In this document: positions 26,228-45,379 of the stretch, one piece after another
How positions within the stretch are numbered: the stretch's first letter is position 1
Layout: the number at the start of each line of letters is the position of its first letter
Origin: a virus
Direction: 5' to 3' (one strand)
DNA: 64,000 nucleotides
IMG/VR virus record: IMGVR_UViG_3300037070_001066
Coordinates: 32,001 to 96,000 of that record
Notes under the pieces: model-generated
What the model saw: only the letters and a program-made list of their open reading frames with translations
Database searches by the model: none
What the model was told of the DNA's origin: nothing
Made by a program: the position numbers and the translations under genes

Positions 26228-29200
26228 CTACTCTAATATCGTGTATAATTGATAATAATCTTTATCTAACTGAGACCATATTGGCACAAGTCTTTTAGTT
26301 GCTTTAACTAATTCATTCTTGTGTTTAGCGTCTTCATCTAAATATGAAAAGAAATTTTCATCATCCTCTGGGAAGAAGTTAATTGGAGTTACAACTTGTT
26401 GTATAAAGTCTAAACCTGTTTGTATTAATTTAATACCTGCAACAGGATTTGTTAAAATCTTAGCTGTCTCTCTAGGATCTCTAAATTGAGATAATTCAGA
26501 CTCTAATCTTCTAAGTTGATATACTAAGAACCATAATTCATCATCATCAGGGGCTGCTGCTCCTGCAATTAATGCTCCAATAGCTGGTAAAATTACAGAT
26601 GTTAACATTATCTCAAGAGTTGCTTTCTTTAAATTAGCCTTCTCGTGGTCTGATAATGAGTTATATACATCTTTCATATACATCAATTGCATAGACTTCA
26701 TTGATGGAACAACTCCATTTACGAAATATCTAGCTAAAGATGTGTAAATACCTTCAGTATATTCTTTCTTAGCAGAACTATAGTTTAATTCATCTTCAGT
26801 TAAGTCTTCTCTACTTTTAAGTGATGTAGATATACCTGTATATCTGTAAGCAAGAGCGCCTAAGAAGAAGTTTTTAAACATCATCACTAGTTTACCTGAG
26901 ATAGTTTTAGACAATTCATTCTTAAAGTTATTATCATAAACACCATACAAGTCAAATACTTTGCTCTTAATCAAAAGATTTATATGAGTTTTACCTCCTT
27001 TAGCATATTCAGTAGTAAGATTGTGTTTGGTAAATTTAACTTTATCGTCCATTACTAACTTACCTTTGTTGTCCATCTTAAGCATATCTAATAATGAAGA
27101 AGCTTTAGATTCATCTACAACTTTACCATTCTTATCTATAAATTTATTGTCAGAATTCATCACTTTAAGAGAGTCTAGTACGGCCATAGTAAGTATAGAG
27201 TTCATCATGTGCTCTCCAACTTCGTTTATACCATTCATATTCTTTCTAGAAGCTAACTTCTTTGCCAATGTATTTCTAAGATATTCTTGTGTAGCAGGAT
27301 CAAATCCTCCAAATACATCATACATTTCTAAAGTTTGATTTACAAAAGATGTTTTAACTGGATTACTTAAGTCAGACAATGTGTTAGGAAGTTCAGTTCC
27401 ATAAAGTTTCTCAGCTTTAAGTAAATTCTTAGGACTAATAACGTCTCCTCCAAATGACTCTATAAACAATTGAGTGAATCCATTGAATAAGTTAGCAGTT
27501 CCTGATGCTACGTTTAGAGACATAGCAATACTTGCAGTAGCTCCATTTACGTAAGATACAATCTTATTTCCATCTAAAGGACCTAATCTTCCTCCATGTT
27601 CATGAAATACATCATATATCATCCTGTCCATTAAACCTTTTATTCTCTTATATTCATTAGTAAATTCACCTGGAATAGTTACAACTGGCTGATTCTTGTT
27701 CCAAATATTCATTAAAGGAAGTCCAGTTTTAGTAGAAGTTTGAAAATACCTTTTACTTTTAGATACATCTGCCAACATAATAGCATTAGTTTCGACCTTA
27801 CTTTTCTCTCTAAAGCTAATAACATTGAAATATTCTTTTCTCAGCATTGTAGCTACGTCTAAAGATTGAGTTTTTGGATCTATATCACCTCTATAATGAA
27901 CTTTAACACCGCGAACAGACTCACCTGTTTTGTTATCTATAGCTTCACCATATCCAACATCATCTGGTTTAATCTCAGTAGCATCTGTCCACTTTTGTTT
28001 AACTAAGCCTTTAAAGTCTTTCTCTACACCTCTTTCGAAATCAGATTTAGTTATAGATGGAAACTTATAGAAACTTACTTGGCCTGTCTTTCTAACAAGA
28101 CTCCTACTTCCGCCTGTAGTTGTGTGACCTAATTTGGCTAAAGAAACTGCTTCTTTAAGCATTTCAGCACTAGCTCCAGTTGGTTTAGTATTTCTATATT
28201 TGTCTTTAGGATACCATTTAAGACCATGTTCATCAGATTGATCTCTAACTGTATGCTCTTTCATCCAGGCTTTAGTCTTCTGATACAATGCTTTGTATTC
28301 ATCATTCTTCATGAAATCTTTAGCCATTACAGCTCCTTCTGCTTTAAGTTTATCCTTCAATTCACTAAGCTCTAATTCCATAGGTTTGTATTCTTCTAAA
28401 TAGATATCTCTAAATTTTACACTATAAATACCTTTAAAGAAGTAATTACCATCTTTGTCTTGCTCATATATATCTTTATATAACTCAGACGGAGCAAGGT
28501 TACCTTTTTCTTTAACTAAATCATTAAAAACATTTTTAAGAGCTAAATCATAATCTTTGTACAAATCTATAATAGTATCTCTTGCTGCACTAATCATATT
28601 AGTGATTATTTGTATAAGTTTACTGTTAGTATTTAAAGGGTCTTCAAAGTTCTTTTTAAATGAACTTATGTCGAATGCTGGATTGTATACAATTTTCTCT
28701 GCAGCTTTAATTAAATCTTCTTCAAATAAATCTTTATCTCTAGTAGTCAACATTCTAGATGCATATTCAATTCTAGATTCACCAGTTATTTTCTTATCTA
28801 CATATTCTTTGTAAAGTCTATTTCTGTGATCTGTCTCTACTTGTGTATTAAACTTTGGATTAGCAAGAAATTTAACAGCTTGTTCGTTTTTTATAGCGTG
28901 AAACTGAGATTTAAGTGATTTACTTTCACCTGCAGCATAAGATATAATCTTTCTTATAGAATTAAAATCTTCAACTTCCTCTTCAGTTAAGTCTTTTTTA
29001 AGGACAGAGGCTCCAACAAGTTTACTTATATCATCAATAAGATCATATGCGGCTAGATACTCTTCATAACTATTTATAGTCTTAAGTAGATCTTCGTCTC
29101 TATAGTCTTTTGTTTTCTTATGAAGTCTTTCTAAACCTTTTGTAACTTGAATAACAGTTTTGTTTAATGTATTAGCATAACCTAAAATAACTTTAACTTT

Positions 29201-30364
29201 TTGAGTCTCAGACATTTTGTCCATCTCTTTAATTAAAGCATCTATATTCTTCAAGTGATCTTTTTTGTCTTTCCTTGATATAGGTTTTTTTGTCTTAGCA
29301 GTTCTAGCTCTAGCTTGAGCAATTCTATCTTTAGTTTCTTTTACAAGCTCATCAAGTTTGTTTTCAAAACTAGTCATCTCTGGTTTAACAAATTCAAGCT
29401 CTTTAGCAAACACACCTTTATATTGAGTCTCTTCATTTTCATCCTGAACATTTTGTTCATTGAAGTCCATTATCGTGTTGAATAAGGTTGTATATTCACT
29501 ATTTAGTGGTATATTGAAAAATCTTCTTATTGCGTTAATGAATTGATTCCACAATCCTTCAGATTCAGATTTAACTTGATCTCTAAATTCAGGATTAGAA
29601 TAAAACTCAGCAACAAATTCAAATTCATTTTTAAATCCATATTCCTCTGCTAAATCACTATCTTTGTATTTCTTCATAAACTTGTCAACAACTTCAACAA
29701 GTTCTTTCTCTGCAAGAGTTCTATTCTTAGGATCTTTAGCTAAAGCATCAGCAGTAATACTATGAACAACTTCATGAAGAAAAGCTACAACAACATCTTT
29801 CTCACTAAGACCTTTAATTCTCTCTGAAGAAACTTGAATTTTCTTAGATACTGGGTCATATTGCATAACTGCAGAAGTAGATATCATGACTTCTTCATCA
29901 ACTAATTCAACTTTTGCTTTCGATCCACCCATAATACGTGCCGCTCTAGTAGCTAAATCTTGCGCGTAAGGCGTTAAATCAGAAATTCCAGTACTTATAT
30001 TAGATAAAATATTATCGACGCTTAAATCGCCTTTAAATAGGTTTTCAGTAAATACTTCAACTTCAGGATCATATGAAATTTCTTCATCAAGAGTATTTGG
30101 AGCATTTTCATCAACTAAATCATGAAAATTTACTTCATCTGACAATCCTATCTCACTAATTGGTTCTGTTAATTTTTGTTCAGGTTTTGCATTTTCTTTA
30201 ACAACTGATGCAGTATGTAGTTCGTCTACTGTAGGAAACTTTTCAAGTCCATTTACTTCTTGCCACAAAGATATCTTAGCAGCAGCAATTAGGGGACTAA
30301 CCCCTAACTCGCTAGCCAAATCAATAACAGCATGACTCTTATGATTAACACAATGTATTGCCAT
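26228..30364 (-). CDS. large virion cargo/ejection protein with N-terminal zincin-like (HExxH) domain
   Basis: 1378 aa; FLHEVVH...EFVAE; hydrophobic C-terminal segment; third gene of the crAss giant-gene block. Confidence 0.75.
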   Translation of the reverse strand: MAIHCVNHKSHAVIDLASELGVSPLIAAAKISLWQEVNGLEKFPTVDELHTASVVKENAKPEQKLTEPISEIGLSDEVNFHDLVDENAPNTLDEEISYDPEVEVFTENLFKGDLSVDNILSNISTGISDLTPYAQDLATRAARIMGGSKAKVELVDEEVMISTSAVMQYDPVSKKIQVSSERIKGLSEKDVVVAFLHEVVHSITADALAKDPKNRTLAEKELVEVVDKFMKKYKDSDLAEEYGFKNEFEFVAEFYSNPEFRDQVKSESEGLWNQFINAIRRFFNIPLNSEYTTLFNTIMDFNEQNVQDENEETQYKGVFAKELEFVKPEMTSFENKLDELVKETKDRIAQARARTAKTKKPISRKDKKDHLKNIDALIKEMDKMSETQKVKVILGYANTLNKTVIQVTKGLERLHKKTKDYRDEDLLKTINSYEEYLAAYDLIDDISKLVGASVLKKDLTEEEVEDFNSIRKIISYAAGESKSLKSQFHAIKNEQAVKFLANPKFNTQVETDHRNRLYKEYVDKKITGESRIEYASRMLTTRDKDLFEEDLIKAAEKIVYNPAFDISSFKKNFEDPLNTNSKLIQIITNMISAARDTIIDLYKDYDLALKNVFNDLVKEKGNLAPSELYKDIYEQDKDGNYFFKGIYSVKFRDIYLEEYKPMELELSELKDKLKAEGAVMAKDFMKNDEYKALYQKTKAWMKEHTVRDQSDEHGLKWYPKDKYRNTKPTGASAEMLKEAVSLAKLGHTTTGGSRSLVRKTGQVSFYKFPSITKSDFERGVEKDFKGLVKQKWTDATEIKPDDVGYGEAIDNKTGESVRGVKVHYRGDIDPKTQSLDVATMLRKEYFNVISFREKSKVETNAIMLADVSKSKRYFQTSTKTGLPLMNIWNKNQPVVTIPGEFTNEYKRIKGLMDRMIYDVFHEHGGRLGPLDGNKIVSYVNGATASIAMSLNVASGTANLFNGFTQLFIESFGGDVISPKNLLKAEKLYGTELPNTLSDLSNPVKTSFVNQTLEMYDVFGGFDPATQEYLRNTLAKKLASRKNMNGINEVGEHMMNSILTMAVLDSLKVMNSDNKFIDKNGKVVDESKASSLLDMLKMDNKGKLVMDDKVKFTKHNLTTEYAKGGKTHINLLIKSKVFDLYGVYDNNFKNELSKTISGKLVMMFKNFFLGALAYRYTGISTSLKSREDLTEDELNYSSAKKEYTEGIYTSLARYFVNGVVPSMKSMQLMYMKDVYNSLSDHEKANLKKATLEIMLTSVILPAIGALIAGAAAPDDDELWFLVYQLRRLESELSQFRDPRETAKILTNPVAGIKLIQTGLDFIQQVVTPINFFPEDDENFFSYLDEDAKHKNELVKATKRLVPIWSQLDKDYYQLYTILE

Positions 30365-30370
30365 ATATTT

Positions 30371-30733
30371 TTATTTTAAAAATTTTAATTTATATAGCGT
30401 ACTATATATTAATTCTAATATGTCATCAATTATTTGTTGTAGATATCCGCAGTCACTTAAAGACTCTCTAAAGGATTTAAAAGACTCAATAAATCCTTCT
30501 AAATAAGAAATTGGACTAATGCTTTCAGAAATAGAAAACGACTTATAGCCTTTTATAATTCCATATTCTCCTTGGTAAGACTCAATGAATCTATCTCTAA
30601 GATCTACAATATCTCTATATAATCCATCTAAAGCTTTATGCTCTGCAAAACTAGATGTTTGCAAGTGAGCAATATGTGCATTTACTTCTATTGCAAATAG
30701 GTTAGACACAAACTCTTGTACTTTATTTTCCAT
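30371..30733 (-). CDS. ferritin/Dps-like four-helix protein
   Basis: H..HLQT.SFAEHKAL..LY......D.FIE.YQG.YG; L..IIDDI......TLYKL. Confidence 0.8.
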   Translation of the reverse strand: MENKVQEFVSNLFAIEVNAHIAHLQTSSFAEHKALDGLYRDIVDLRDRFIESYQGEYGIIKGYKSFSISESISPISYLEGFIESFKSFRESLSDCGYLQQIIDDILELIYSTLYKLKFLK

Positions 30734-33700
30734 AACATTCTATTAATTTTTCTTTTTCATCGTCACTTAACGCCATGAATGACTCCTTAGTCATAGTAGG
30801 ATCTGCTTGTTGGAAAGCCTTAGAATGCTTATTCCATGAATCTTCAATAAACTTATCATAATCTTGTTCAGTAGTCTCTTCTCCAGTTAAATTCAATGCT
30901 CTTGAGGCATTTCCTTCAATAGTCTCAGCTTTGTTACTAATTCCAATTACAGTAGTTTTAGCTCTAGTTAAAGCCGTATAAATACTTCTAGATTTAGATT
31001 TTGCTGATAAAGGACCAACACTATTGATGTCTTGGATATCTACTATAACACTATCATATGTAGAACCTTGAGATTTATGTGAAGTTATAGCATAAGCATA
31101 ATCTATGTTAGCAAAAGACTTTTTAAGTCCCCATGCTTGTGCATACATTTGCTTTCTTAATGCTCCAGGAGGCATTTGTTTAGCCTTAGCGAACATCTCA
31201 GCTACTCTTTCATTAAACTCAACTTTAGATTCATCTGCAAGTACTGGAAATGACATATCAGTATTAGTTCCATCACCACGCTCTACAGTAACTGCATAAG
31301 CTTGAAAACCATTATATGTAGTCTTTCTAACACCTTTTATAGAGAATTCATCACTATTAGATACCTTAGTTCTAGAATCAACATCAAAGTTGTCTTGGAA
31401 CATTATAATATCATTCTCAATTAATTGAGGCACATCTTCTCCGAATACAGCTTTTCTAATATCATTATTGTAAGCAGTTCTTGTAGCGTTTCTATATGTA
31501 ACAACTTTGATTACATTAGGGTTTTGCTCAAGTATACCTCTTTTAAATGAGTCTACTACATCTTCAAATATATGACCAAATGATCTTACAAATACTAAAT
31601 TACCTTTAGGAGATAATGTATCTTTCATAACTCCATCTGGAACAGGATCTTGTTGAGAAGTTTCTAACTCAGAGTTATCCCAATAATAATCTGCAAATGG
31701 AAGTATAGGAGACTCTTCTCCTTGACGAACACGTTCAGTTAGGCTAGCTTTATTCTCAGAATCAAATACAGGACTAATGCTATCTAAATCAGTTTTAGAC
31801 CATCCATGATAATAAGGATTTTTAAGATCTCTAATAGGAGGCAATTGACCTCTATCTCCCAAGAACACTAATTTAGCAGATCTTCTTTTCATCTCCATCA
31901 TCATCTCAATAGCCTCTTCATTAACCATAGAAGCTTCATCTATAATAATAATATCATGTTTAGTAATCTTAGCATCTTCAGAAAATGAATCAGTAAACTC
32001 ACCTGTCTCAACATCCATAGTCTTGCCTAATATACCAGCTATACTTCCACTTTCAATCTTCCCAGGATATCTATTGTCAAGCTTCTCTGATAAAACTAAC
32101 TTAGCTTTATGAGATAATGCTGCAATTAAAATCTTTTTACCTGCATTTACAAATGGGGCAATAGCTTCTTGTACAATAGTAGTTTTACCAGTACCAGCCT
32201 TACCTTCAATTACAAGTATCTCTCCTGGATTACCATTCTTAACAAACTCTTGAATTACGTTAATTGCATTCTCTTGTTGTTCATTTGCAGGTTTAAATAC
32301 TTGCTTATTATTAATGCTGTCATAAGGAGGGTTTGTTATAATATCAACTTTAGGTGTTGCAAGAATACCATGTTCAGCTAAACTAAGTATGTTCCTTCTT
32401 TCAGAAGATTCATCTACCCATTTCATTATCTTATTATTAGTAAGAGAAATAATTGTATTATTAGGAGTAACAACATAATCACTACCTAAGTAAGTAACAA
32501 ATTTACCTTTCTCTTTTCTACTTGTAAGTTTAGATTTAGATACAGACAGCTTAGCTAAAGCACCTTCCATTCCTGGATTATATATTTGAACAGTTCCTAT
32601 TGCATTAAATTGAGTAACTATATATGGAACTCCATTATAATCTACAAATCTACCAATTTCTAAAGGATATTCGCTAATAGGTTCAATTTTCTTGATATTA
32701 GTACCAGCTTCTCTTTTAACTGCTTCATATTCTTCTTCGGTTAACTCATGAGGAACAACATCTGCATCAGCTGCGTCCATTATAGCCTCTTCAGTTCTTT
32801 TATACAAATCTCTAATGGCTTGTTTTGCAGCTTCTTCTTTTTTAGTTCCTAAATACTCTTGTCTAGGAGTCCATTTATTAGTAGATTTATCTAAAGTATT
32901 ATAATTTTCTATATCTCTAGTTCCAACACCTGCAAAATCCTTAGTCAAAATAGGTGGTTTATGTAGTTCAAAATACTTACCATTCCATCTATTCCACTTT
33001 TCAGTTTTAGTGTCCCATACGTAAACAGGTTTTCTTAACTTAATACCTAATTGAACTGCAGTATTAGTTCCTCCATGTACAGCTGTTGAATTGAATTTAT
33101 CATTAATATCTAAAGGAGCTACAGCAAATACAGCATCAGAATTAGCTACTTGATAGTAATTTCTAACTTGAAGATTGCCTTGAACTGTATTTGGGAATTT
33201 TTTACCAAGCAATCTCTCAACTTCAATCCTAGCAGTTTCCATTTGTTCATCTGTTAATACAGTTGCTTCTACTTTGCTATTTTTAAGTTTTTGAGATAGT
33301 CCAGTATTTTTGCCCTCTCTATAATGTTTATGTTCAGTAACACCAAATTCTCTACCAATAATATCAAAGTATGTATCTGCACCATAAGCTCCACCACTAT
33401 GATTAGTTATTTCAGACATAGAAGATACTTCTAGTACAGGTTCTTTTAATACTATAGAATCTTTTATATCTTCAACTTTACGATATACTGGAGCAAGTTC
33501 TTTAACTTCAACAGGTTTCCCTGGCTCTTCAATTCTTTCATCAACCTCTGATAATTCAAAGTTAGGATTAAAGTTTTCTCTTTCAGTTACAACCATATTC
33601 ATTAAATAGTCAATTTCTTCTTTATTACTTAATTCTGGTCTCTTAATGAATCTATCTCCATATTCTATAACAACACTTCCTTTAAGTTTCTTACCAAGAG

Positions 33701-36700
33701 GATTTACTCTTGTATAAATTCCTTTGTTTTCAGAATCATATCCTTCAAGTTTATAAATATGATTATCATCTAATTGAACATAGAATCTAGACTTACCAGA
33801 TTCTTTCTTAATGAAGCCAGATTCTTTATCTCTAGTAACCATTTCATTCTCGAATACTAAAGGAACATATTTGTACTTATGTGTATTGTTTAAATAGAAT
33901 TTATCTATGAAATCTTCTTGATTTGCTCTAGAAAATTTAGGAACAAAGTAATTTACACCTTCATTTATCATATATTCATGAGGAATATATGTATAGAACT
34001 GATTAGAGTTCATTCTAAATCCTGAAGTAAGAAATGAATACTTTATTAAATCTTCAGCAAATTGAACATGGTCTAATCTTAAATCTCTCCATGAATCAGT
34101 AAACTTCTCTTCAAATGATGTAGATTTCTTTCTATTATTCAAAGATATGATCTTAACTTTACCATCTCTTTTAATTTGAAGCTCATCTAAGATCATATAC
34201 TTACCTCTATATTCCTTTCTAAATTCATCAAATTTAGCAGGAAGATTATTAAGTAAATCTCTAGACTCTTCTTCAGATAAGTTAAATGGATTAAAGTTAG
34301 ACATTACATAAGTGTAGTAGTTTTTCTCTAAATCTGTAGTAAGCTCTTCATTTGTAGCAGGCATACTATATAAATCATCAGAAATTGTATTAAACATTTT
34401 CTGAACTTTCTCCTGTCCTTGAGGAAATAAACTTGGATTAGATTGGACTATTCTCATCATCTCTTTAAGAGATTCAAAGTAATGTCCTAATGTAGTATTG
34501 TCAAACTTAGATTGAAGTCCATTTAAAGCCTTGTAATTATCATTCTCTTCTTTACCTAAAATATATTGTTTTAAGTTAAAAATAGAATATAATGAGTTAA
34601 TATTTTTACCCATACCATTAGTGTCTAATTTAGAGACATCAACATTCTCTTTCATAGTTTTACTAACTTCTTGCAATTCTAAGAACTTTTTATATACAGC
34701 TAATTGAAATGGACCATCTGGCTTGCCAGTAATTTGTTCTCTAAAGAATTGTAAGTCATATTCTTTACTAGTTATATTAACAGTTTCTTCCTTAAAGATT
34801 TCATTATGAGCATCTCTAATCTCATCCAATATTGGATTTATTTCATCAAATGTAGCTTTCTTTCCAAGAACTTTTTTAATCTCACTAACTCCTTTATCTA
34901 GTGCCTTATCATTAAGAATCCCATCTGCTTTCATTTTTTGATAAACAACTCCATAAGGAAATCCTTTTTCATCTTGAAGCTTGATAAGATTTTCTAATAC
35001 AAGATTTCTTTTAAATTTAGTCTTAGTGTCTCCACTATTCTTAGATGTAATTGATTCAAGACTAGATTGATACTGAACATATTGCTTTATTATTGGCTGA
35101 GCCATAAATGCAGTAACATACAAAGGATGTGTGCCTGATCTTAACAATAAGTTTCCTATATTAGTTGTAGATGTAGTCCAGTTTCCTCTAGTAATATAAG
35201 GGTCTTTGGCTATATCCACAAATGCATTAAGAATTGCAGTTAATGAATCGCCTATCTTAACTTTACTAATTTCGTTAGCAAGTTCTTCAGATCCATTCAT
35301 TGCTTTAAGATAATACTCTAAATCAGATGGACTTAATTGTTCAGAAAACTCTTTATCAAATACTGTCTCTCTAATATTATTTCTAACTTCACTATGTCCC
35401 CAACCAATGTAGTATTTATTTAGACTTAAATTACCTATTCTATTAATATCAACCAAAGCGTTAGCTTCTTGACCAACACCTGCTTTACCCCCAATAAATT
35501 CATATCTAAGTTTGATATCACTAACAGCGTCAAAGTGAAACATAGGTTTACTTGTATCAGCCTTCACAAGGTCTTTTATCTCGTTCTCAATGAACTTAAT
35601 ATCTACGGGCTTCATAACATCCTTAATTACTTTTGGATTCGTTAAAACAGCCTTATATAGCTCCACAAGCCTATTCTGAACAGCTTCCTTAGATTGTTCT
35701 TCATTGGACAACTCTGGATTGTATTCAGTGTACTTAAGTTTGCCTTCTGATAATGTATAGTTAGACATCATAATGAACATCTTATCAATATCAAAATCCG
35801 ATCCAGTTTTAGTTGTAATACCTGTGTAAGCTACAATTGTATCGCCATTCTCTTCAGGAAGGATTCCTACTATTTGTAATGCATCATTAGATGAAAGTCC
35901 TTGATTTGGAATACGATATCCTACTATATTACTTAAAATTCTATCATCTATAATCCCTTCAACTTTATTACCATCTTCATCTGTATATCCAAATAATTCT
36001 TCAGCTTTATATTTTTTGTAGTCAGGAATATATTTAGCAATAAACGATCCTGATATTAATATACCTCCTGGTCTAATCTTAGTTTTACCAGTATCTTCAT
36101 CTACATATATTGTAGGTTCAAATGTGGTATCTCCATTGTTTAATACAGGACTCCATATAATACCTTTGTCTCCATTTTCTTTAGATATGCCAAAGTTAGA
36201 CATCTGAATGAATGCTCCACCATTAGTTTTAATCTTAATCAGCCTATCATTCATAATAGAAGAATAGATGCTTATGATCTTGTCTATAGACTGTGGCATT
36301 CCATATAAAGTAACTTGTTTATTAAGAGCATCAATTATATTTTTAGATCCACCTCTTTTTTCAAGCTCTTTAACTAAAGCGTTATATAATCCTTTTACAT
36401 TGTTTATCTTACCACTCTTACCTATACTAAACTCTTTGTTAACTTCTTCAAGTCCTTTACCTATAAGGCCTTTAACTATGTCAGAAATTCCATCTGAAAT
36501 CTCCTTTCCAGTTACATCTTTTCCATCTAAATAGAAACCTTTTTGTTTTGCATTAAACTTTAGACCTGCAAATATATTCTTTTGAATTTGAGATCCTACA
36601 TCAGTTTGTTTAAATGTTTTAATAGGAAGATCTTGTTGCAATTTCCATCCATAATTAGACAGACTTACCTTATTAAAAGTAACATTATCTATCTCTCCTT

Positions 36701-39700
36701 TAGCATTATGAATAGTAGTTGGAGTAGGAGAACCTACTTTAAATCCATCTATTGTAATAAGCTCATCAACACCTTGCTCTTGCATTCCATTAAACAACTT
36801 CTCTAGTCCAGTATTTTTAACTAAACCTCTAGTTAATACAGCTTGAGAGTATTTAAGGTATGTAGGAGTTTTTCCATTCATATAAAAGTAAACACCCTTT
36901 AATGGTTGTGCCATTATCTTAAGTTCGTCTTTAGTATAGATTGGATGTGTATCTGATGTCATTTTCTCATACACAGCATTGTGAGTTTTATTATCCCACT
37001 TACCAAGTCTTTCAAGTAAGAATCTCCATCTTTGAGGAGTTATCCAAGCTTGAGCATCAGCAGAGTTAATTTTTTTGTATGGTTTAGCACCATCTTCTCC
37101 AAGCATTTCAACTAACTTATCAAATACAGGAGATTCTATTTCTATACTATTAATTGTAGCAGCAGTAAAAGTTTCTTCTCCCTCTTTCAATCTCAATTGA
37201 AGTCCATCAGTATATGTACCAGGAATACGTTTCTTATAATCAACCATGTTTTTATAGAAAGCAACATCTCCTGTAAACAGTTTAGAGTACTCTATATTTT
37301 GAATTAATCCGTTAATATAGAAGTCAGATGCTGCAGATGTAACTGCATTAGTTGTATCTCCAAAATTATTTTCTAAATACTTTTTAAAAACGTCTTTATC
37401 TATTCTTTTATTAGAATAACCGTCTTTATTTATTTCTACAACTTCTTGGTTAATCAATGAGAATACAGTTTCTTGTATACCACCTTGTAGCATATCATTA
37501 ATATATGCTTCTATCTCAGATCTTAACTCTGGATTAGTAGACAAGTCAGCAGTATGTTTAATACTACCATCACTGTTATATAACTTACTTTTAATTTCAT
37601 TAACAGCACTATTGTCAGATTTCTCTGAGAAAGATAACTCTGGAAAGTATTGAGAATTAAATGCATTACCATTCTTTGAGTAAATATCTGAACCTGCTTT
37701 GTAATGATAATGTATTCTAAGATTCTCAGGGTTCTCACCAGCAACATCTACTTCAGCATTAGCCTCCTTCATTCTATTGAATTCAGAGTTAAAGTAGTTG
37801 AAGAACAATCTTAATGTTCTATCATTAATAGAAACCTCATCATTTCTAATAGTAGTTGTATCTACAAATAGTCCAGTTCTAATTTGAAGATCTGTAGTCT
37901 TATCAGCAGGAGTTGTTGTTCTTACATATGAATTTGATAATACCTTATTTAAGTTATCATTAAAGTAATCATTGTAAGATATATCACTTGCAGACACATA
38001 GTCTCCGTCTTTCTCTTGAAATGTATTGAACACGCCTAAATTTAAACTATCAAGTCTTTCTTTAGATACTTTTCTTCTTTCTTCTTTTAGTCCATCTTTA
38101 AGAACTTTTTTATTTCCAAATTCATCTTTAGGATTAATATCTAATGCTAGTAAGTATTTTGCAAGTTCAGATCCTTTATTATATGCAGATTGGTCATACC
38201 AATTTCTTAACAATTCAGGATTTTTCTTCCATTGTAAAATTCTAGTAGAGATATATGACGGATATGAAAACAACCATTTATTCTTACCTGAAGTCCATAT
38301 ACTTGCATCAGAACCTTCTGACAAAAAGAAAGACTCTGCTTTAGCTAACTCTTTAAATATACTTTGAGTTTCAAAAGGATTGTTAAAATCTTTATGAGCT
38401 TTTTTAAAATAGTTTAAAGATTTCTTTAGAACATAACTAGTTCTTTGAACAGATTTAGTTAACTTACCTTTCTGATGTTCAATATTGAATGATTTGGATC
38501 CATTATCATCTAAATAGTTAATAAAACCATTCTTTGTCAATTCAACTCCTAACTCTCTAGTTAAAGCAACATATTCATTAGAGTATTTAGTAAATTCCTC
38601 TTCGGACATATCTTTAGAAACTAAATTAAGAAGTGAATCTAGCTCACTTATAATACCTTCTAAATTAGCTTTAGCTCCTTCTTTAAATGAATTATCTTCT
38701 TTCAAGAAACTTAGTCTAAAGTTATTACCCCATTCTGATTCAACAATAGATGCCTTAGATCCAGACTCTGAAACTTCTTTCACGTCTAACTTAAATGTCT
38801 TTTCGACATTGCTAGTTTCCGTATCTACAACTTTAGTTCTTATCTCAGATACAAGAAAGTTTTGCTTATGTAAGTTAAATGCTTGAGCAAATTGATTCTT
38901 ATCGCTTTCAGTAAATCTCTTATCGTTAAAGAATCCAATCAATTGATTTAGGTATTCTTTTTTGTAGGCTATTTTCTTAATCTGAGTTCTTTGCAATTCA
39001 AACATATCTTCACCAGGAAGAGCAACTTGATTTGAAATGTTGTTTAAAAGAGTTGAGTATACATCATTAAATGGAACAAACGTAGGTTCATTCCATACAG
39101 GATCTCTTTCTTCGTTGTTTTCAAGCAAAGACAATCTAAGTTTAATGTTGTTACTTAAAGAATTCTTACTGTCTTGTTCAAATGAAGCTTTGTTGAATAC
39201 AGGATCTTTACCTTCTTCACTTATCGTTTGTAAGTCAGAAGCTTCGTCGTTATCAACTCTTTTAATACTTATCTGTTTGTAAAAATTGTCAATTCTATCT
39301 ACATATTCATCTAAATAATCTAATGACTTTCCGAGAGATCTAGACATAAATTTCCCTTTAGGACCTTCTGTTTGAAGAGAAGCTATCTTCTTTTTTATTT
39401 CAGATTCAACATGATCTCTTAATCTAGGAAGTTTTTCTCCTTCTTCGAATTCAATGTTATTGAAGTTAATATTAGGAGATTGTTTAAAGTAATTTAAAGC
39501 AAGTCTAGAAACAATTCTATCCATTTGTTTATAGTCAAAAACAGAACGAAGTCCTCTTTTTTCTATTGGATATGGTATCTGTTCATCATTTTTACTAATG
39601 AAGTAATACTTTTTAGACTCTTCACTATAAAACAATTTAGGTTCTCCATTATCGTAAACTCTTTTACTGAATGAAGGATCTCCTTCTTTATATCCTTCAA

Positions 39701-39863
39701 CCCAATCTCCAAATTCTTCTACAAATGCAGATTGTTCACCAGGAACAACATCAAAATAAGCATAAGCTTCCTCAGCTTTAAACTCATTACTATAGATATG
39801 CTCTAATGTTTTAATCAATTTCGATTCAGAACCATTTGTTCTTGTGATCTTTTTACACGCCAT
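30723..39863 (-). CDS. virion-packaged RNA polymerase (crAss gp66-like) fused to SLOG-like and SF1B (RecD/Dda-like) helicase domains
   Basis: GYRIPNQG and catalytic GSDFDIDK (35781-35804); HSGGAYGAD...RN..QV..SD...GGT..AV; GKAGTGKTT, DEASMV, GD..QLPP, YAIT.HKSQGSTY, YTA.TRA. Confidence 0.9.
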   Translation of the reverse strand: MACKKITRTNGSESKLIKTLEHIYSNEFKAEEAYAYFDVVPGEQSAFVEEFGDWVEGYKEGDPSFSKRVYDNGEPKLFYSEESKKYYFISKNDEQIPYPIEKRGLRSVFDYKQMDRIVSRLALNYFKQSPNINFNNIEFEEGEKLPRLRDHVESEIKKKIASLQTEGPKGKFMSRSLGKSLDYLDEYVDRIDNFYKQISIKRVDNDEASDLQTISEEGKDPVFNKASFEQDSKNSLSNNIKLRLSLLENNEERDPVWNEPTFVPFNDVYSTLLNNISNQVALPGEDMFELQRTQIKKIAYKKEYLNQLIGFFNDKRFTESDKNQFAQAFNLHKQNFLVSEIRTKVVDTETSNVEKTFKLDVKEVSESGSKASIVESEWGNNFRLSFLKEDNSFKEGAKANLEGIISELDSLLNLVSKDMSEEEFTKYSNEYVALTRELGVELTKNGFINYLDDNGSKSFNIEHQKGKLTKSVQRTSYVLKKSLNYFKKAHKDFNNPFETQSIFKELAKAESFFLSEGSDASIWTSGKNKWLFSYPSYISTRILQWKKNPELLRNWYDQSAYNKGSELAKYLLALDINPKDEFGNKKVLKDGLKEERRKVSKERLDSLNLGVFNTFQEKDGDYVSASDISYNDYFNDNLNKVLSNSYVRTTTPADKTTDLQIRTGLFVDTTTIRNDEVSINDRTLRLFFNYFNSEFNRMKEANAEVDVAGENPENLRIHYHYKAGSDIYSKNGNAFNSQYFPELSFSEKSDNSAVNEIKSKLYNSDGSIKHTADLSTNPELRSEIEAYINDMLQGGIQETVFSLINQEVVEINKDGYSNKRIDKDVFKKYLENNFGDTTNAVTSAASDFYINGLIQNIEYSKLFTGDVAFYKNMVDYKKRIPGTYTDGLQLRLKEGEETFTAATINSIEIESPVFDKLVEMLGEDGAKPYKKINSADAQAWITPQRWRFLLERLGKWDNKTHNAVYEKMTSDTHPIYTKDELKIMAQPLKGVYFYMNGKTPTYLKYSQAVLTRGLVKNTGLEKLFNGMQEQGVDELITIDGFKVGSPTPTTIHNAKGEIDNVTFNKVSLSNYGWKLQQDLPIKTFKQTDVGSQIQKNIFAGLKFNAKQKGFYLDGKDVTGKEISDGISDIVKGLIGKGLEEVNKEFSIGKSGKINNVKGLYNALVKELEKRGGSKNIIDALNKQVTLYGMPQSIDKIISIYSSIMNDRLIKIKTNGGAFIQMSNFGISKENGDKGIIWSPVLNNGDTTFEPTIYVDEDTGKTKIRPGGILISGSFIAKYIPDYKKYKAEELFGYTDEDGNKVEGIIDDRILSNIVGYRIPNQGLSSNDALQIVGILPEENGDTIVAYTGITTKTGSDFDIDKMFIMMSNYTLSEGKLKYTEYNPELSNEEQSKEAVQNRLVELYKAVLTNPKVIKDVMKPVDIKFIENEIKDLVKADTSKPMFHFDAVSDIKLRYEFIGGKAGVGQEANALVDINRIGNLSLNKYYIGWGHSEVRNNIRETVFDKEFSEQLSPSDLEYYLKAMNGSEELANEISKVKIGDSLTAILNAFVDIAKDPYITRGNWTTSTTNIGNLLLRSGTHPLYVTAFMAQPIIKQYVQYQSSLESITSKNSGDTKTKFKRNLVLENLIKLQDEKGFPYGVVYQKMKADGILNDKALDKGVSEIKKVLGKKATFDEINPILDEIRDAHNEIFKEETVNITSKEYDLQFFREQITGKPDGPFQLAVYKKFLELQEVSKTMKENVDVSKLDTNGMGKNINSLYSIFNLKQYILGKEENDNYKALNGLQSKFDNTTLGHYFESLKEMMRIVQSNPSLFPQGQEKVQKMFNTISDDLYSMPATNEELTTDLEKNYYTYVMSNFNPFNLSEEESRDLLNNLPAKFDEFRKEYRGKYMILDELQIKRDGKVKIISLNNRKKSTSFEEKFTDSWRDLRLDHVQFAEDLIKYSFLTSGFRMNSNQFYTYIPHEYMINEGVNYFVPKFSRANQEDFIDKFYLNNTHKYKYVPLVFENEMVTRDKESGFIKKESGKSRFYVQLDDNHIYKLEGYDSENKGIYTRVNPLGKKLKGSVVIEYGDRFIKRPELSNKEEIDYLMNMVVTERENFNPNFELSEVDERIEEPGKPVEVKELAPVYRKVEDIKDSIVLKEPVLEVSSMSEITNHSGGAYGADTYFDIIGREFGVTEHKHYREGKNTGLSQKLKNSKVEATVLTDEQMETARIEVERLLGKKFPNTVQGNLQVRNYYQVANSDAVFAVAPLDINDKFNSTAVHGGTNTAVQLGIKLRKPVYVWDTKTEKWNRWNGKYFELHKPPILTKDFAGVGTRDIENYNTLDKSTNKWTPRQEYLGTKKEEAAKQAIRDLYKRTEEAIMDAADADVVPHELTEEEYEAVKREAGTNIKKIEPISEYPLEIGRFVDYNGVPYIVTQFNAIGTVQIYNPGMEGALAKLSVSKSKLTSRKEKGKFVTYLGSDYVVTPNNTIISLTNNKIMKWVDESSERRNILSLAEHGILATPKVDIITNPPYDSINNKQVFKPANEQQENAINVIQEFVKNGNPGEILVIEGKAGTGKTTIVQEAIAPFVNAGKKILIAALSHKAKLVLSEKLDNRYPGKIESGSIAGILGKTMDVETGEFTDSFSEDAKITKHDIIIIDEASMVNEEAIEMMMEMKRRSAKLVFLGDRGQLPPIRDLKNPYYHGWSKTDLDSISPVFDSENKASLTERVRQGEESPILPFADYYWDNSELETSQQDPVPDGVMKDTLSPKGNLVFVRSFGHIFEDVVDSFKRGILEQNPNVIKVVTYRNATRTAYNNDIRKAVFGEDVPQLIENDIIMFQDNFDVDSRTKVSNSDEFSIKGVRKTTYNGFQAYAVTVERGDGTNTDMSFPVLADESKVEFNERVAEMFAKAKQMPPGALRKQMYAQAWGLKKSFANIDYAYAITSHKSQGSTYDSVIVDIQDINSVGPLSAKSKSRSIYTALTRAKTTVIGISNKAETIEGNASRALNLTGEETTEQDYDKFIEDSWNKHSKAFQQADPTMTKESFMALSDDEKEKLIECYGK

Positions 39864-39875
39864 TTTTTATAGTTT

Positions 39876-39910
39876 ATGTAAATATACAATTTTTTTATTT
39901 AATATGCAAA
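39876..39910 (-). promoter_or_regulatory. promoter upstream of the vRNAP gene
   Basis: TTTGCATA-N15-GTATATTTACAT, identical boxes and spacing to 59372-59406. Confidence 0.65.
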
Positions 39911-42900
39911 TTAAAATCCACATATTTGTTTTATATCGTCAATAGACTTGTTATTTTTCTTAGCAACATCTATTAGCTCATTAAAAGTCTTATTAAGATT
40001 CTCTGAAGAGAAAGATTCATCAGAAGTGTATTTATCTAAAACGTTGAATTTGTCAGCAAGACTAAATATAACTTCTGCCTTAGTATCATCATCAACTTTA
40101 TTAAATAAAATTTCTAATTCATTGACATTAGTTTTAACATCTTGTTTACTATTAGGAGCTTCTTCTTTCTTTTTCTTGGCATTAAGCATATCTTGAAATA
40201 ATTGACTAGTTCTAGCAACTTTACCTTCTTCATTAGACTCTACAGTAATCTCCTTCTTAACTTCCTCTTTAACTTTCTTAGCAACAGGTTTGCTATTTTT
40301 AACGTCCTGATTAAGATATATATTACTATATCCTTGAAATGTAGGTTGATTAACTACAGCATTTGTTGTCAATAGTGGCATATTCTTATTTAGAAGGTAT
40401 TCTACATATGCTGGGTTATTGAAAACAAACTGACCTGGAGCATCTCTAGTTATAAGAATGTTATGTCTCTTATATTGAACATATCTCATTATAGCCTCTC
40501 TAGCTTCAGGAGAAGCTAACTCTTCTTTAGTTATAGACAATTTATGTTCAAATCCAGAACCATCTAATAAATGCATTGCTAATGAACCTAGAATTAAATT
40601 ACCGTCAGGCATTAAATTAAAACCAGTTTTAGGATTTAAACTTTTATGATATATGATTAAGTCTAATAACCTAGAAAGACTTTCATTCCTTTCATCACCT
40701 TTAGCAGTTCTTTTAACAAATCCTATCTCACCTTTCAAAGCTTCTTGTAATGAAGCACTAAGATCTGGATCTATTTCATCTAATTGTTTAAAGAATTGTC
40801 CTACAGTTAAAGCTTGAAAACTAGTCTTCTTGCCTATAGACTGAGATACTTGACTTAAAGATTTAACAATCTCATATACAGCTTCAGCTTTCTCTTCATT
40901 TATTCTAGACACATTTAGCTTTAAAGGGAATGGAGTTCCATTGTTTTGATTGACCATAAGGAAAACTTCTCCCTTAGACTTTATACCAATATTAGTTTGC
41001 ATAATATGATCTTTGTCTAATGTACTAACTAAGTTTCCTTCCCAGTTAACATAACCAGTATTCTTTTGAAAATATTCAATCTTCTGAGCTTTAGTCATAC
41101 CATCAAATACCTGTAAATCAAGTACACTGTTCATTGGAACAGGACCATCCTCTTCTCTCTGAGTTATTTTAAGGACTCCAGGGAACTGATCTATTACGTT
41201 TGATGATATACCATCAAAACCTTTATTTAATACAGCCTGAGCGATTATATTGCGTCTGAGAGGCATAGTTTGCTTCTCTAGTATCTCTTGAGAATCAGGA
41301 TGAGCTTGATTGTCTTCAGTTTTGTTTTCTATAAAAGAATGTACTTTTTTCTCTTTACCATCTTTCTTGTATGTAAACGTAACTCTAATAGGTAATTCAT
41401 CTTCAAGTAACTTAATGTCGCTTGCTGTGGCAATACCAGAAACTAAATTATTAAATGCAGCTTCGACTTCTTTAGTAGTTGTCTTAATTACTTTACCAAC
41501 ATTATTAGGATCTGCTATAGAACTTACAAATGAGAAAGTTACTCCGTCACCAGATTTATCTCTAGGAGTTCTTTCATATTCAACGAAAGATTCTAAATTA
41601 GGATATAAAGCTTTGCCAGTTTTTCTTTTTGTACTAATAACTTTAGCTCCAGCTTGAGGAGAATCTAAATCATCGTCAATTTCTTTCTCAGTTTTGTTAG
41701 CTCCAGTTTCAACTTCTTCATCTTCAACTTCATCTTCTCTAGTAGGTAATGATTCAGATTGATAATCTCCTTCTTCATCTTCAGTTACAGGAGGAACTAC
41801 GATTTCTACAACTTCTTCAGGTTCGTCTATCTTTTGAGTTTCTTCTAGTTCTGTTTGAATGTTTTTCTCTACCTCTTTTTCTACAGCCTCTTCTTCGTTT
41901 AATTGATCTTCTTTTTCTTTAATCTTCTGAGCTATAACAGGATTCTTGACTAGAGGATTAACCTTCCTATCTTTAAGATTCTGTATATCTTCCCAAAACT
42001 CTCGTTCATTATTTAATGAATTAAGAGCTTGCTTATTAATTACAGCCTTATTTATCCTATTAAGTTTATCTTTAGTGTCTTTTAAATCAGATTTAGCTTC
42101 TTGTAAGTTTTTAGATGTTCTAAGAAACTCATCTCTAACATACTTATAATCTTCCATATTAGTACCAGGCTTAATCTTGCCTAACATGTCTGCATATGTC
42201 TCAAGTATACCTTTAAGTACAGTTCTATATCCATCTAATGAATCTACAGCTTCTTCAAGTTCTTCAACTCTACGTTCTGTACCTAATTGATGTGTTAACA
42301 AAACTCCTAAGTCTTGACGATGATCTTTAAATAGATCTGAACTTTTATTTAAGTAATCTACAATATCCTGAATGGTTTCTAATTCAAGATTATTCACTTG
42401 ATTATACCTGTCAAAGATATAGTTAATTTCTTTATTTAGTTGTTTAAGTTCACCTTCAAGGTCATTGATAGCTTTTTCATACCTAGAGATGTCTTTATTA
42501 ACCTCTTCTAGCTGGTTTTCAGCCTCTCTAATGAGTTGTTTTAATATTTTGGCATTACGACCTCTAGGAGATTTATTCTCTTCTTGTAGAGCCTTAATTA
42601 AAGCCTTCTGAATTGATATAAGATTGTTTAACTCGTCTTGATGTTTAGATAAAGTCTCTTGAACTTCTTCAGCATGACTATAATATTCGTCTAATACATC
42701 TTCTAAAGTATCTTTAAAAGCTTCTTGCTCTTCAATTCTTCCTGACAATGTATCTTCTATATCATCTATTAAGTCATTAATTGCAGATGAAGTCATATTC
42801 AATGCTTTCAACTTATCTAAATTTGACTTTAAATTAGAAGTAGAATCATCATTTGATATACTTTTAGAAACTTGACTAACAACATGTTCTTCTGTTGCTC

Positions 42901-45379
42901 TATCATAATCTTCATTAGATACATGAGCAGGAAGCATCAACATATTTAACTCATCTTTTGATTGAGCAGAATCAACATTGTCTATAAACTCTTGAGCCTT
43001 AGCAACAGCTTCAGGTGAAGATGCATTTTCTTCAGCTTTCTCATGACCTATGAACTTATTAAAAGCTTCTTGAATATTGTCTCCACCTTTCCAAATATCA
43101 GCAATATCTTTCTTATGTTTTTCAACTTCTAATTTTTTAGCTTGATAATCTTTATCTATATTTTTAATTAATTCATTTGATTCTAAGGCTTCTTTTGTTT
43201 TAGTAGCTCTTTCTTCTAATTTTTCATCAGTTACTAATCCTGGTTTCATTTTACTAGTAGGGAATTCAGAAGTAGGATCATATAATTCATCTACTCCAGC
43301 TTCATCATAAGCTTTTCTTCTTTTATCTTCTAGTTTTTTTAAGTCATTTTCAGCGTTTCTAAGGGCATATTTTGAGTTAAGGTAACTTGCACTAAGTCTT
43401 TCAAAGAATTGTTCCTTATGCGCCTCCGTACCATCTCTATTGTCAAGTCTAATGACGTCTCTACTAAAGTCTTGAAACCTTTCTTTTTGAGACTGTAACC
43501 ATTTAGCGCTTTCTAATGTTTCTTTAACAAAGTTTTTAGAGTTATCTTTAGAGTCAGACTTAGCATCTCTTTCTACAATTTCATTGAATTGAGCATCTTG
43601 ATTAAGCTTTTGTTCTAACGCTTTTAAGCCAGCCTCTCCATTATGAATAGCTGGCATTATTAAATTAAATATTGCTTGTCTCTTAATTTGATCAACAACT
43701 TCTGTATTGCCAGATTGAACAGCTAAATCGAAAAGTGCAGATTGTCTCTCTGTAAAGTTTAAATTCTTGGCAACTCTTCTTACTTCTTTGTTGTCTAAAA
43801 TTCTTTCAGTAGTTTCTTCACCATTTTCATCTAACTTGTATTCAAAAGAACCGTCTTCTTTCTTTTTGTATATGTTATTTTCAAATGTAGTGTTGAAATT
43901 TAATATCTCACTATCTATGTTATCAAGAATTGCATTAGTTCTTTTTCTATTTTTAACATCTTCTTTTCTTCCTTGATAAGACATCATTGGTCCTCCAAGA
44001 ACTCCTCCTAAGAATATAGCTTTCTGTCCTTCTACTGTAGATAAAGTATTGGCATACTCTTTAGTAAACTCTCCAATTAAGTCAAATGAATTAGCATCTT
44101 TCTTTCCCAATTCACCTCTCATTGCTTTGTTTACAAACATATTCTCTACAGTGGTTTGAGAACCTTCTTCCCACAAACCTTCAGATACTCCTGCTTCTCC
44201 CCATCTTAGAGCAGCTTTACCAGCTCTTTTTGCAATACCTTTAATTCCTACTTCAGCAGTTTTTTCAAACTTCTCTGCAGCTTTACCCCATATGGCCTTA
44301 TGCATTATAGCATTAGGCCCTAACAAGATAGCGACGTTAGATACAAATGTGTCTCGCATTGCTAAAGCACGTTGAGCGCTAAAAGCTTTTTCTGCCTCTT
44401 CACCTATATTTTGAGATAATTCATTATATTGGTCTATGCTTATTTGACCTGATCTTCTTTGTTGATCAAGCTCTGTCATTCTTTTTTTATTGTATGTTTC
44501 TACAAATTGTGGCTTTTTAGCATCTAAATCATCACCAACACCTTTAGCCTCAGCTCCTGCTTCTAATAATGTATTTCCTGTTACAGATAATGCTGTGTCT
44601 ATATTTCTACCAGTCATTCCCATAAGCTTAGCAACTTGTGTGCCTTCTTCAGCTTTACCTGCCATATTAGTTAACCATCCTAATTTCTTAGAATTAGCTG
44701 CAGATTCAACAAGTTTACTTCCTAAGCCTAACTTTTCAAATGCCATTCCAGGGGCCATCATTCCTACAAGAAATCCAAGTCCATCAGCACCATCAGTTGC
44801 CCAAAAAGCTGTGGAAGATATATTGTCCCAAAGGTTACCTTCTTTCATTGCTTTAGACGCATAAACAGGAAGTAAATCTTCATTTACATTCTTGTTTAAT
44901 TTATCTACACTTTTAACCCATTCATTATTAAATATAGTGTCAAAACCTTCACCATCTTCAGCAAAAGGAGCTGCAATAGCACCAGCAATTACTCCAGGAA
45001 TTTTAGCAACCTCAGCTGCAGCTTTAGCTACTGCTCTTGTAGGAAGTTTACCTAATTGCTCCCATCCAGATTGGTTCTCAGCTCGTATATCTTCATATGG
45101 ATCTTCAGCGTTTAAATTAGCGAATTGATCAAGTAATGGATTTGTGCCAGGAGTTACTTCATCTTGATTAGACGAATTAATATTAACACTATGTCTTTCT
45201 GTATCAAAAGCATTAGAAGTAGCTGTTCTTAGTTTGCCTTTTTGAGATGACCATTGTTTATACGCATTTGTATTAGCAAGACTATCTAAAAACTTATCAT
45301 CATAACTACTTGCTGTCTTCTTTCCTTTAGGCGGATCTATTTCACTCATCTTATTTCTTTTTAGCTTGATTCTTGGCAA
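39911..45379 (-). CDS. large virion cargo/ejection protein (coiled coil, N-terminal Gly/Ala hydrophobic segments); likely start ATG 45349
   Basis: 1822 aa; EAGAEA and E...EE..Q motifs typical of crAss giant proteins; immediately upstream of vRNAP. Confidence 0.75.
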   Translation of the reverse strand: MPRIKLKRNKMSEIDPPKGKKTASSYDDKFLDSLANTNAYKQWSSQKGKLRTATSNAFDTERHSVNINSSNQDEVTPGTNPLLDQFANLNAEDPYEDIRAENQSGWEQLGKLPTRAVAKAAAEVAKIPGVIAGAIAAPFAEDGEGFDTIFNNEWVKSVDKLNKNVNEDLLPVYASKAMKEGNLWDNISSTAFWATDGADGLGFLVGMMAPGMAFEKLGLGSKLVESAANSKKLGWLTNMAGKAEEGTQVAKLMGMTGRNIDTALSVTGNTLLEAGAEAKGVGDDLDAKKPQFVETYNKKRMTELDQQRRSGQISIDQYNELSQNIGEEAEKAFSAQRALAMRDTFVSNVAILLGPNAIMHKAIWGKAAEKFEKTAEVGIKGIAKRAGKAALRWGEAGVSEGLWEEGSQTTVENMFVNKAMRGELGKKDANSFDLIGEFTKEYANTLSTVEGQKAIFLGGVLGGPMMSYQGRKEDVKNRKRTNAILDNIDSEILNFNTTFENNIYKKKEDGSFEYKLDENGEETTERILDNKEVRRVAKNLNFTERQSALFDLAVQSGNTEVVDQIKRQAIFNLIMPAIHNGEAGLKALEQKLNQDAQFNEIVERDAKSDSKDNSKNFVKETLESAKWLQSQKERFQDFSRDVIRLDNRDGTEAHKEQFFERLSASYLNSKYALRNAENDLKKLEDKRRKAYDEAGVDELYDPTSEFPTSKMKPGLVTDEKLEERATKTKEALESNELIKNIDKDYQAKKLEVEKHKKDIADIWKGGDNIQEAFNKFIGHEKAEENASSPEAVAKAQEFIDNVDSAQSKDELNMLMLPAHVSNEDYDRATEEHVVSQVSKSISNDDSTSNLKSNLDKLKALNMTSSAINDLIDDIEDTLSGRIEEQEAFKDTLEDVLDEYYSHAEEVQETLSKHQDELNNLISIQKALIKALQEENKSPRGRNAKILKQLIREAENQLEEVNKDISRYEKAINDLEGELKQLNKEINYIFDRYNQVNNLELETIQDIVDYLNKSSDLFKDHRQDLGVLLTHQLGTERRVEELEEAVDSLDGYRTVLKGILETYADMLGKIKPGTNMEDYKYVRDEFLRTSKNLQEAKSDLKDTKDKLNRINKAVINKQALNSLNNEREFWEDIQNLKDRKVNPLVKNPVIAQKIKEKEDQLNEEEAVEKEVEKNIQTELEETQKIDEPEEVVEIVVPPVTEDEEGDYQSESLPTREDEVEDEEVETGANKTEKEIDDDLDSPQAGAKVISTKRKTGKALYPNLESFVEYERTPRDKSGDGVTFSFVSSIADPNNVGKVIKTTTKEVEAAFNNLVSGIATASDIKLLEDELPIRVTFTYKKDGKEKKVHSFIENKTEDNQAHPDSQEILEKQTMPLRRNIIAQAVLNKGFDGISSNVIDQFPGVLKITQREEDGPVPMNSVLDLQVFDGMTKAQKIEYFQKNTGYVNWEGNLVSTLDKDHIMQTNIGIKSKGEVFLMVNQNNGTPFPLKLNVSRINEEKAEAVYEIVKSLSQVSQSIGKKTSFQALTVGQFFKQLDEIDPDLSASLQEALKGEIGFVKRTAKGDERNESLSRLLDLIIYHKSLNPKTGFNLMPDGNLILGSLAMHLLDGSGFEHKLSITKEELASPEAREAIMRYVQYKRHNILITRDAPGQFVFNNPAYVEYLLNKNMPLLTTNAVVNQPTFQGYSNIYLNQDVKNSKPVAKKVKEEVKKEITVESNEEGKVARTSQLFQDMLNAKKKKEEAPNSKQDVKTNVNELEILFNKVDDDTKAEVIFSLADKFNVLDKYTSDESFSSENLNKTFNELIDVAKKNNKSIDDIKQICGF

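Follow-up and report, generated by a model that had tools for sequence, protein, structure and literature searches.

Terminal cysteines of three giant cargo proteins in a crAss-like phage suggest a disulfide-linked ejection chain

The window analysed here is a stretch of 64,000 nucleotides (positions 32,001 to 96,000) of the IMG/VR virus record IMGVR_UViG_3300037070_001066, which has 104,771 bp and was judged to be a complete virus record. It belongs to a crAss-like phage; among cultured phages, Cellulophaga phage phi14:2 is the closest relative. The late block of the window lies on the minus strand and includes, in this order, the tail ring genes, the muzzle gene, a GIY-YIG endonuclease gene, the gene of a 1038-amino-acid (aa) cargo protein, a second GIY-YIG gene, the gene of a 659-aa cargo protein, and the genes of cargo protein A, the virion RNA polymerase (vRNAP, hereafter R) and, after a DUF5856 gene, cargo protein C (Table 1). 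Matches to CrAss_Ring_1, CrAss_Ring_2 and PF25731 place the ring and muzzle genes upstream of the cargo genes, as is characteristic of the tail and cargo module of Crassvirales. The subject of this study is the distribution of cysteines (Cys) in A, R and C. These three proteins are homologous to gp078, gp077 and gp076 of phi14:2 (g067, g066 and g065 in the paper on its RNA polymerase; PDB 6VR4) and to gp47, gp50 and gp49 of crAss001, which have the same Cys pattern. The homologues are all packaged in virions, according to record notes and the text of a preprint for phi14:2 and to mass spectrometry for crAss001. Searches of the cargo block against phage records (megablast) and of A (as a profile) and C against PDB sequences gave no match.

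Cys were counted in computed translations. The five cargo proteins contain four Cys in 7,933 aa (0.05%), compared with 164 in the 12,018 aa (1.36%) of the other 38 open reading frames (ORFs) of the window; the binomial probability of this depletion is 2.9e-41. One Cys is found in A, two in R, one in C, and none in the 659-aa and 1038-aa proteins. All four lie within five residues of the four ends at which A faces R and R faces C, i.e. in 20 of 6,236 positions, and such a placement has a chance probability of about 1e-10. A sequence-only reading of this DNA, based on a manual scan, had reported only four Cys, at the facing termini, and apparently Cys-free smaller cargo proteins; the computed count agrees with it in full and reveals no internal Cys in any of the five proteins. 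The length of 1822 aa that it gave for A holds only for a TTG start at 45379, the protein having 1812 aa from the ATG. Two genes escaped it, that of DUF5856 between those of R and C and that of a GIY-YIG endonuclease between those of the two smaller cargo proteins.

Residues 12-1381 of R match 6vr4_A (phmmer against the PDB, E = 1.6e-228), and its first 1,400 aa are 34% identical to phi14:2 over 98% of their length (tblastn). The core motif of two-barrel polymerases, GSDFDID, is present with its catalytic DFDxD, the aspartates D1356, D1358 and D1360 being invariant in a 30-sequence alignment of R (A1). In contrast to the described phi14:2 and crAss001 proteins, R continues past the core with a DprA/SLOG-like stretch followed at the C-end by a Dda-like SF1B helicase. 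The helicase appears intact from its sequence; most relatives have neither it nor the DprA/SLOG-like stretch. Where the C-terminal domain differs, it is the new end of R that carries the Cys.

The terminal Cys are conserved across Crassvirales, a point on which the sequence-only reading had made its proposal depend: the pattern is kept in database homologues, in IMG/VR loci and in reference phages. Among database homologues it was found in about 250, some with no more than about 25-30% identity. Exactly two Cys are present in nearly all of the 120 listed homologues of R, which show 33-100% identity, measure 2,033-3,396 aa and may or may not include the helicase: the first is at position 3 (in some cases 4-8), the second within the last 0-6 residues; their C-terminal sequences differ completely, yet the Cys stays at the end. 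The database matches of A have a single Cys at the C-end, and those of C a single Cys at the N-end. Cys3 of R forms an invariant column in alignment A1, and Cys1810 of A a near-invariant one in alignment A2. With the R alignment as a query, 62 non-redundant IMG/VR loci were retrieved (a single-protein query retrieved none). In these loci 51 of 53 A proteins have a Cys 0-6 residues from the C-end; the N-terminal Cys of R lies at position 3-7 in all 56 complete N-ends, the C-terminal Cys of R 0-5 residues from the end in all 58 unfused polymerases, whatever their C-terminal domain or length, and the N-terminal Cys of C at position 2-6 in all 57 proteins. Internal Cys make up about 26 of the 248 Cys in 323,631 aa. 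At the outer ends, that is the N-end of A and the C-end of C, no Cys was found in the loci examined, and the counterparts of the 659-aa protein (600-900 aa) have none in nearly all loci. By our own count the pattern is kept in phi14:2, crAss001, IAS virus and cr126_1; it is also present in p-crAssphage (genome BK010471), crAss002, several Suoliviridae and Flavobacterium phage Fpv3. The sampled genomes include no Crevaviridae, cr10_1 (which has an apparent indel at the boundary) and cr114_1 being Suoliviridae.

Chance or an annotation artefact, such as wrong starts or low Cys usage dictated by composition, is scarcely conceivable as the cause of this pattern: the conservation data reject it, as do the probabilities of depletion and placement given above. 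A few database entries do lack one terminal Cys (P0011, P0016, P0141 and P0231); several aberrant entries lie on short contigs and look truncated. The ORF starts are tightly bounded, because the first ATG is mostly within a dozen codons of the upstream stop and at most 26 codons from it in complete ORFs. The annotated start of crAss002 gp33 hides an MSC head, Met33-Ser-Cys35 being the head conserved in relatives, and judging from the sequence it was probably annotated 32 codons too early (L006 17307-17405). At the boundary of gp055 ('molybdenum carrier') and gp056 ('RNA polymerase') of IAS virus an N-filled stretch is seen (L003 16800-16870); the two probably form a single gene, with a product that would begin with MSLYC.

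A role of the terminal Cys other than linkage, e.g. in modification, redox sensing or the recognition of the protein for packaging or processing, or as a relic of cleavage sites in a polyprotein, is very unlikely. It could draw on the fact that some crassviruses encode their modules as polyproteins that are thought to be cleaved, and on the HExxH motifs of C and the 1038-aa protein described below. On the other hand, only the Cys is conserved and not its sequence context, its position tracks the physical end of the protein whatever domain is there, and no lipobox, signal peptide or intein-sized element adjoins it in the sequence. An intein or split intein was rejected for lack of an intein-sized element and since the Cys is not at position +1 or 1, and a lipoprotein for lack of a signal peptide and a lipobox.

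The short sequences around the Cys look like exchangeable modules. Near-identical tail motifs, e.g. ..EYIKKCK*, are found at the end of A or, in other phages, of R (L020, L021, L050, L071 and others), and types of R tail co-occur with types of C head, e.g. ..KKICK* with MSISC...

Natural fusion and fission of the A, R and C genes served as a natural experiment. Among the relatives compared, wherever the collinear A-R-C series is truly broken into separate proteins, both of the adjoining ends carry a Cys, and in clean fusions of either junction both junction Cys are absent while the other pair is kept. The A+R fusion of Fpv3 (4,287 aa) has its only Cys in the penultimate position, and the following protein starts with MAC; the A+R fusions of locus L088 (one Cys in 4,208 aa) and of cr55_1 (two Cys in 4,551 aa) have none at the mapped junction. 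All three retain the Cys at the C-end of the fusion and at the N-end of C, and other A+R fusions of Suoliviridae likewise keep the C-terminal Cys and the N-terminal Cys of the next protein. The reciprocal arrangement is seen in the R+C fusions. Those of the marine loci L051 and L058, about 3,520 aa long, contain a single Cys, at position 7, and those of Intestiviridae (p-crAssphage, crAss002, cr8_1 and ctbg_1) have an MSC or MANNC head. All six R+C fusions retain the Cys at their N-end, as does A at its C-end, and have none at their C-end. The junction was mapped in L051, in L058 and, at about residue 2780, in crAss002, and none of these three has a Cys there. The fusion in L051 aligns collinearly with the R tail and C head of its sister locus L052, in which the genes are unfused; a Cys-free linker of about 100 residues joins the two parts. 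In a tree of the polymerase core, R+C fusion occurs in at least two separate places and A+R fusion in one to four, the latter range being due to an unresolved base of the tree. As a negative control, apparent splits of the polymerase in L050, L028 and L038 are group I introns within the catalytic motif (GSDFDIDKMY), and their pseudo-ends have no Cys. The intron of L050 (14007-14284) matches RF00028 with 85 bits, well above the Rfam threshold; L028 (11683-12585) and L038 (14020-14923) give split RF00028-type matches below the threshold around an inserted ORF. A Cys on each side of every true A-R-C break, and nowhere else, is what would be expected if a Cys pair replaced the peptide bond.

The 'facing' order of the ends refers to protein modules and not to strict gene adjacency, because the DUF5856 and GIY-YIG genes intervene in the cargo block. 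The A gene of crAss001 (gp47) lies on the strand opposite to that of its polymerase gene (gp50), yet its product keeps the C-terminal Cys (..RCNS*). Of the earlier proposal that the Cys pair head to tail in gene order, the pairing is strongly supported by the fusions, the breaks, the Cys-free outer ends and the phage A4 structure considered below, whereas gene order proves to be the wrong frame, as the strands in crAss001 and the gene between R and C in the window show.

A precedent for such a link exists in cyanopodophage A4 (Anabaena phage A-4L), where cryo-electron microscopy revealed a disulfide between Cys1715 of gp27 and Cys5 of gp26 inside the virion (PNAS 2025, PMC12002296). The authors treat this bond as a local stabiliser and not as a general rule tied to gene fusion. 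The two are large ejection proteins encoded by adjacent genes. In the A-4L record we counted a sole Cys in gp27 (1,717 aa), third from the C-end (..PCQF*) as in A, and a sole Cys in gp26 (1,114 aa), at position 5 (MSKHC..) as in C. The window proteins, as seen in their sequences, have the same clasp pattern of sole Cys at facing ends of otherwise Cys-free proteins. No homology of gp27 or gp26 to A, R or C was detected (BLASTP E > 0.1; hhalign probability below 1%, at most 0.5%), so that the clasp is a likeness of mechanism, a precedent without inheritance. Phage A4 also differs in having one link, no virion RNA polymerase and a T7-like pentameric pre-ejectosome, whereas the window would have two links in series.

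Cys suppression as such is shared with the ejection operon of Schitoviridae (N4 gp50, DEV gp71-gp73), in which a giant RNA polymerase is ejected with helper proteins and Cys are strongly suppressed. Their polymerase belongs to the T7-like single-subunit type and is a single polypeptide of about 3,400-3,500 aa, with Cys suppressed altogether. In contrast, Cys are not completely absent from the window proteins, since a two-barrel polymerase and its separate partners keep four terminal ones at their adjoining ends.

We consider it probable, on the strength of the sequence comparisons, that A, R and C form a head-to-tail disulfide chain (A-SS-R-SS-C) in the virion. The presence of homologues of all three proteins in virions, and of inter-subunit disulfides at other sites of the crAss001 virion, is in keeping with it. 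In this chain, the C-terminal Cys of A would bond to Cys3 of R, and the C-terminal Cys of R to Cys5 of C, so that about 6,200 residues would be joined in line and all run from N to C, an equivalent of the single polyproteins of other crassviruses. The Cys being within a few residues of the ends, each junction would leave only short stubs. This extreme terminal placement fits a thin junction for a narrow channel and is not needed for the mere stabilisation of a complex. Behind the channel-forming cargo, which is free of Cys, the chain could pass through the tail as a single unfolded thread, and the links would be cut in the reducing cytoplasm of the host, freeing the polymerase; the purge of all other Cys would prevent wrong links in the capsid or the periplasm. 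It is from the distribution, the conservation, the covariation with fusion and the precedent in A4 that we infer the crassvirus disulfides, their threading as one unit and their reductive release.

The facing thiols could also be joined through a metal ion or an iron-sulfur cluster instead of a disulfide. The three-protein architecture has exactly four terminal Cys, the number for a tetrathiolate site, and the head of C in the window is rich in histidine (MAIHCVNHKSH). However, only two terminal Cys are left in fused architectures, the Cys have no conserved second ligand beside them, heads and tails otherwise varying freely, and the A4 structure shows a plain disulfide. We regard metal linkage as highly improbable.

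Somewhat less remote, and still unlikely, is a linkage of each terminal Cys to another partner, such as a further copy of its own protein or a component of the portal, tail or capsid, and not to the neighbouring module. Virions of crAss001 do contain many inter-subunit disulfides, in the tail and the portal vertex; Cys are found at the extreme ends of tail-module proteins of the window (e.g. Cys5 and Cys330 in the 330-aa protein); and terminal Cys also occur in further cargo proteins of some phages (p-crAssphage gp47 and gp48, crAss002 gp30, and a 598-aa protein of Fpv3). What such partners fail to explain is the restriction of the Cys to the internal A-R-C breaks, never at the outer ends, and the joint loss of both junction Cys in fusions that keep the other pair. 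The partner observed in A4 is, moreover, the neighbouring ejection protein.

Several points weigh against the disulfide chain. The disulfides must form after assembly in the reducing cytoplasm, and gut phages live in an anaerobic habitat. The phage's own record of 104,771 bp has no match to thioredoxin (PF00085); it also has none to Erv1/ALR (PF04777), but the control gave no match either, so that this result is uninformative. The co-variation of R tails and C heads is confounded by linkage, because the two are adjacent in the DNA. Since tail motifs such as ..YIKKCK* are found on both A and R, the pairing may be unspecific or generic; with generic pairing A would always cap the N-end of the chain and C its C-end. 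Two of the 53 A proteins are exceptions, with low-complexity tails in which the Cys is 11 and 31 residues away from the end. Among the gut lineages, IAS virus, cr7_1 and cr125_1 carry several internal Cys, and for a few gut fusions with many internal Cys the mapping of the junction is too coarse to exclude a nearby Cys; in cr7_1, Cys 2570 and 2625 are near the estimated junction. A sequence motif was of no use for locating the A/R junction in the gut Suoliviridae fusions, whose N-terminal regions have diverged too far. Finally, we found no paper in the literature that describes a terminal-Cys rule or cargo disulfides in Crassvirales. Co-folding of the C-terminal 180 aa of A and the N-terminal 420 aa of R, both as single sequences, gave a score of 0.00, which is evidence neither way.

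With rather more doubt than confidence, we speculate that the chain of the window is an instance of a disulfide-stitched pseudo-polyprotein found throughout Crassvirales, in which a Cys pair replaces the peptide bond at each gene break and a thread of more than 6,000 residues is injected N-to-C and cut by host thiol reductases, and that the same solution arose independently in A4, which would make it a general principle of podophage ejection. Two-chain (AB) bacterial toxins have a single interchain disulfide outside the cell, which is cut in the reducing cytosol after translocation. The likeness to the crassvirus chain is an analogy of principle only, the proteins and their context being unrelated. 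The suppression of Cys in ejected phage proteins and one disulfide between the C-end and the N-end of ejection proteins (A4) are already known; what is new is that two links, one on each side of the virion RNA polymerase, follow an order-wide rule, and that this rule covaries exactly with gene fusion.

Crassviruses are the most abundant phages of the human gut, and more than 700 kDa of their protein, including an RNA polymerase, passes through a narrow tail. If the chain exists, a reducible end-to-end tether would account for a 1:1:1 delivery ratio and an ordered N-to-C exit, as well as for the near-total absence of other Cys and for the free fusion and splitting of the genes in evolution. The terminal Cys also provide a sequence rule for the annotation of crAss-like genomes, by which true protein ends can be found, start codons corrected and real gene splits separated from introns or frameshifts. 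The chain is directly testable on two cultured phages, phi14:2 and crAss001, and virions of the latter have already been analysed by mass spectrometry both with and without reduction (Bayfield et al. 2023).

Table 1. Genes, motifs and Cys codons of the late block discussed in the text (window coordinates)
Feature	Position	Strand	Remarks
Cargo protein A	39911..45349	-	1812 aa
Cys1810 of A, TGT	39920..39922	-	third from C-end, tail ..ICGF*; proposed partner Cys3 of R
Virion RNA polymerase (R)	30723..39863	-	3046 aa
Cys3 of R, TGT	39855..39857	-	head MAC..
Core motif GSDFDID of R	35784-35804	-	residues 1354-1360
DprA/SLOG-like stretch and SF1B helicase of R	30723-33420	-	residues ~2148-2282 and ~2519-2979
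Cys3043 of R, TGT	30735..30737	-	fourth from last, ..CYGK*; proposed partner Cys5 of C
Cargo protein C	26228..30364	-	1378 aa
Cys5 of C, TGT	30350..30352	-	head MAIHC..; sole Cys of C
DUF5856 / PHROG 858 gene	30371..30733	-	120 aa; between the R and C genes; one Cys, residue 95
659-aa cargo protein	45351..47330	-	position of crAss001 gp46 (C2); outside the proposed chain
GIY-YIG/NUMOD3 homing endonuclease	47323-47883	-	on one side of the 1038-aa cargo gene
1038-aa cargo protein	47873..50989	-	position of crAss001 gp45 (C1); outside the proposed chain
GIY-YIG/NUMOD3 homing endonuclease	50979-51626	-	on the other side of the 1038-aa cargo gene
Muzzle protein	51785-56377	-	PF25731 crAss_MUZ, E = 4.4e-200
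Tail-module protein, 320 aa	59423-60385	-	last residue Cys320
Tail-module protein, 330 aa	60403-61395	-	Cys5; last residue Cys330

The DUF5856 gene is an intervening gene and not a member of the chain. It overlaps the stop codon of R, and its PHROG 858 annotation is 'starvation-inducible regulator', ferritin/Dps-like. Its site may hold a recurrent insert, because many relatives have a gap of about 355-550 nucleotides there, between R and C. Both GIY-YIG/NUMOD3 endonucleases are rich in Cys, unlike their neighbours, with four Cys in the product of the gene next to the 659-aa cargo gene. The 1038-aa protein has a weak match to crAss_CARG1 (PF25725), with 21.3 bits at a cut-off of 27.

HExxH motifs are present in C (HEVVH at residue 197) and in the 1038-aa protein (HEIAH at residue 623), and relatives of C have a conserved HEFxH in the same N-terminal region; from these motifs, zincin-type proteases are possible among the injected proteins.

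The end Cys of the 330-aa and 320-aa proteins recall the inter-subunit disulfides of the crAss001 tail. Some smaller cargo proteins have a sole Cys near one end: next to last in p-crAssphage gp47 (857 aa), eighth from the end in crAss002 gp30 (557 aa), and at position 5 in the 598-aa protein of Fpv3 (L005). In p-crAssphage gp48 and cr8_1 gp90 (L014), a Cys near one end is accompanied by other Cys. In lineages with end Cys on smaller cargo proteins, the chain, or an anchoring of it, may extend further. Thioredoxin-like genes are found just beyond the cargo block in p-crAssphage (L013 31878-32156 and 32876-33145) and in cr8_1 (L014 31821-32090).

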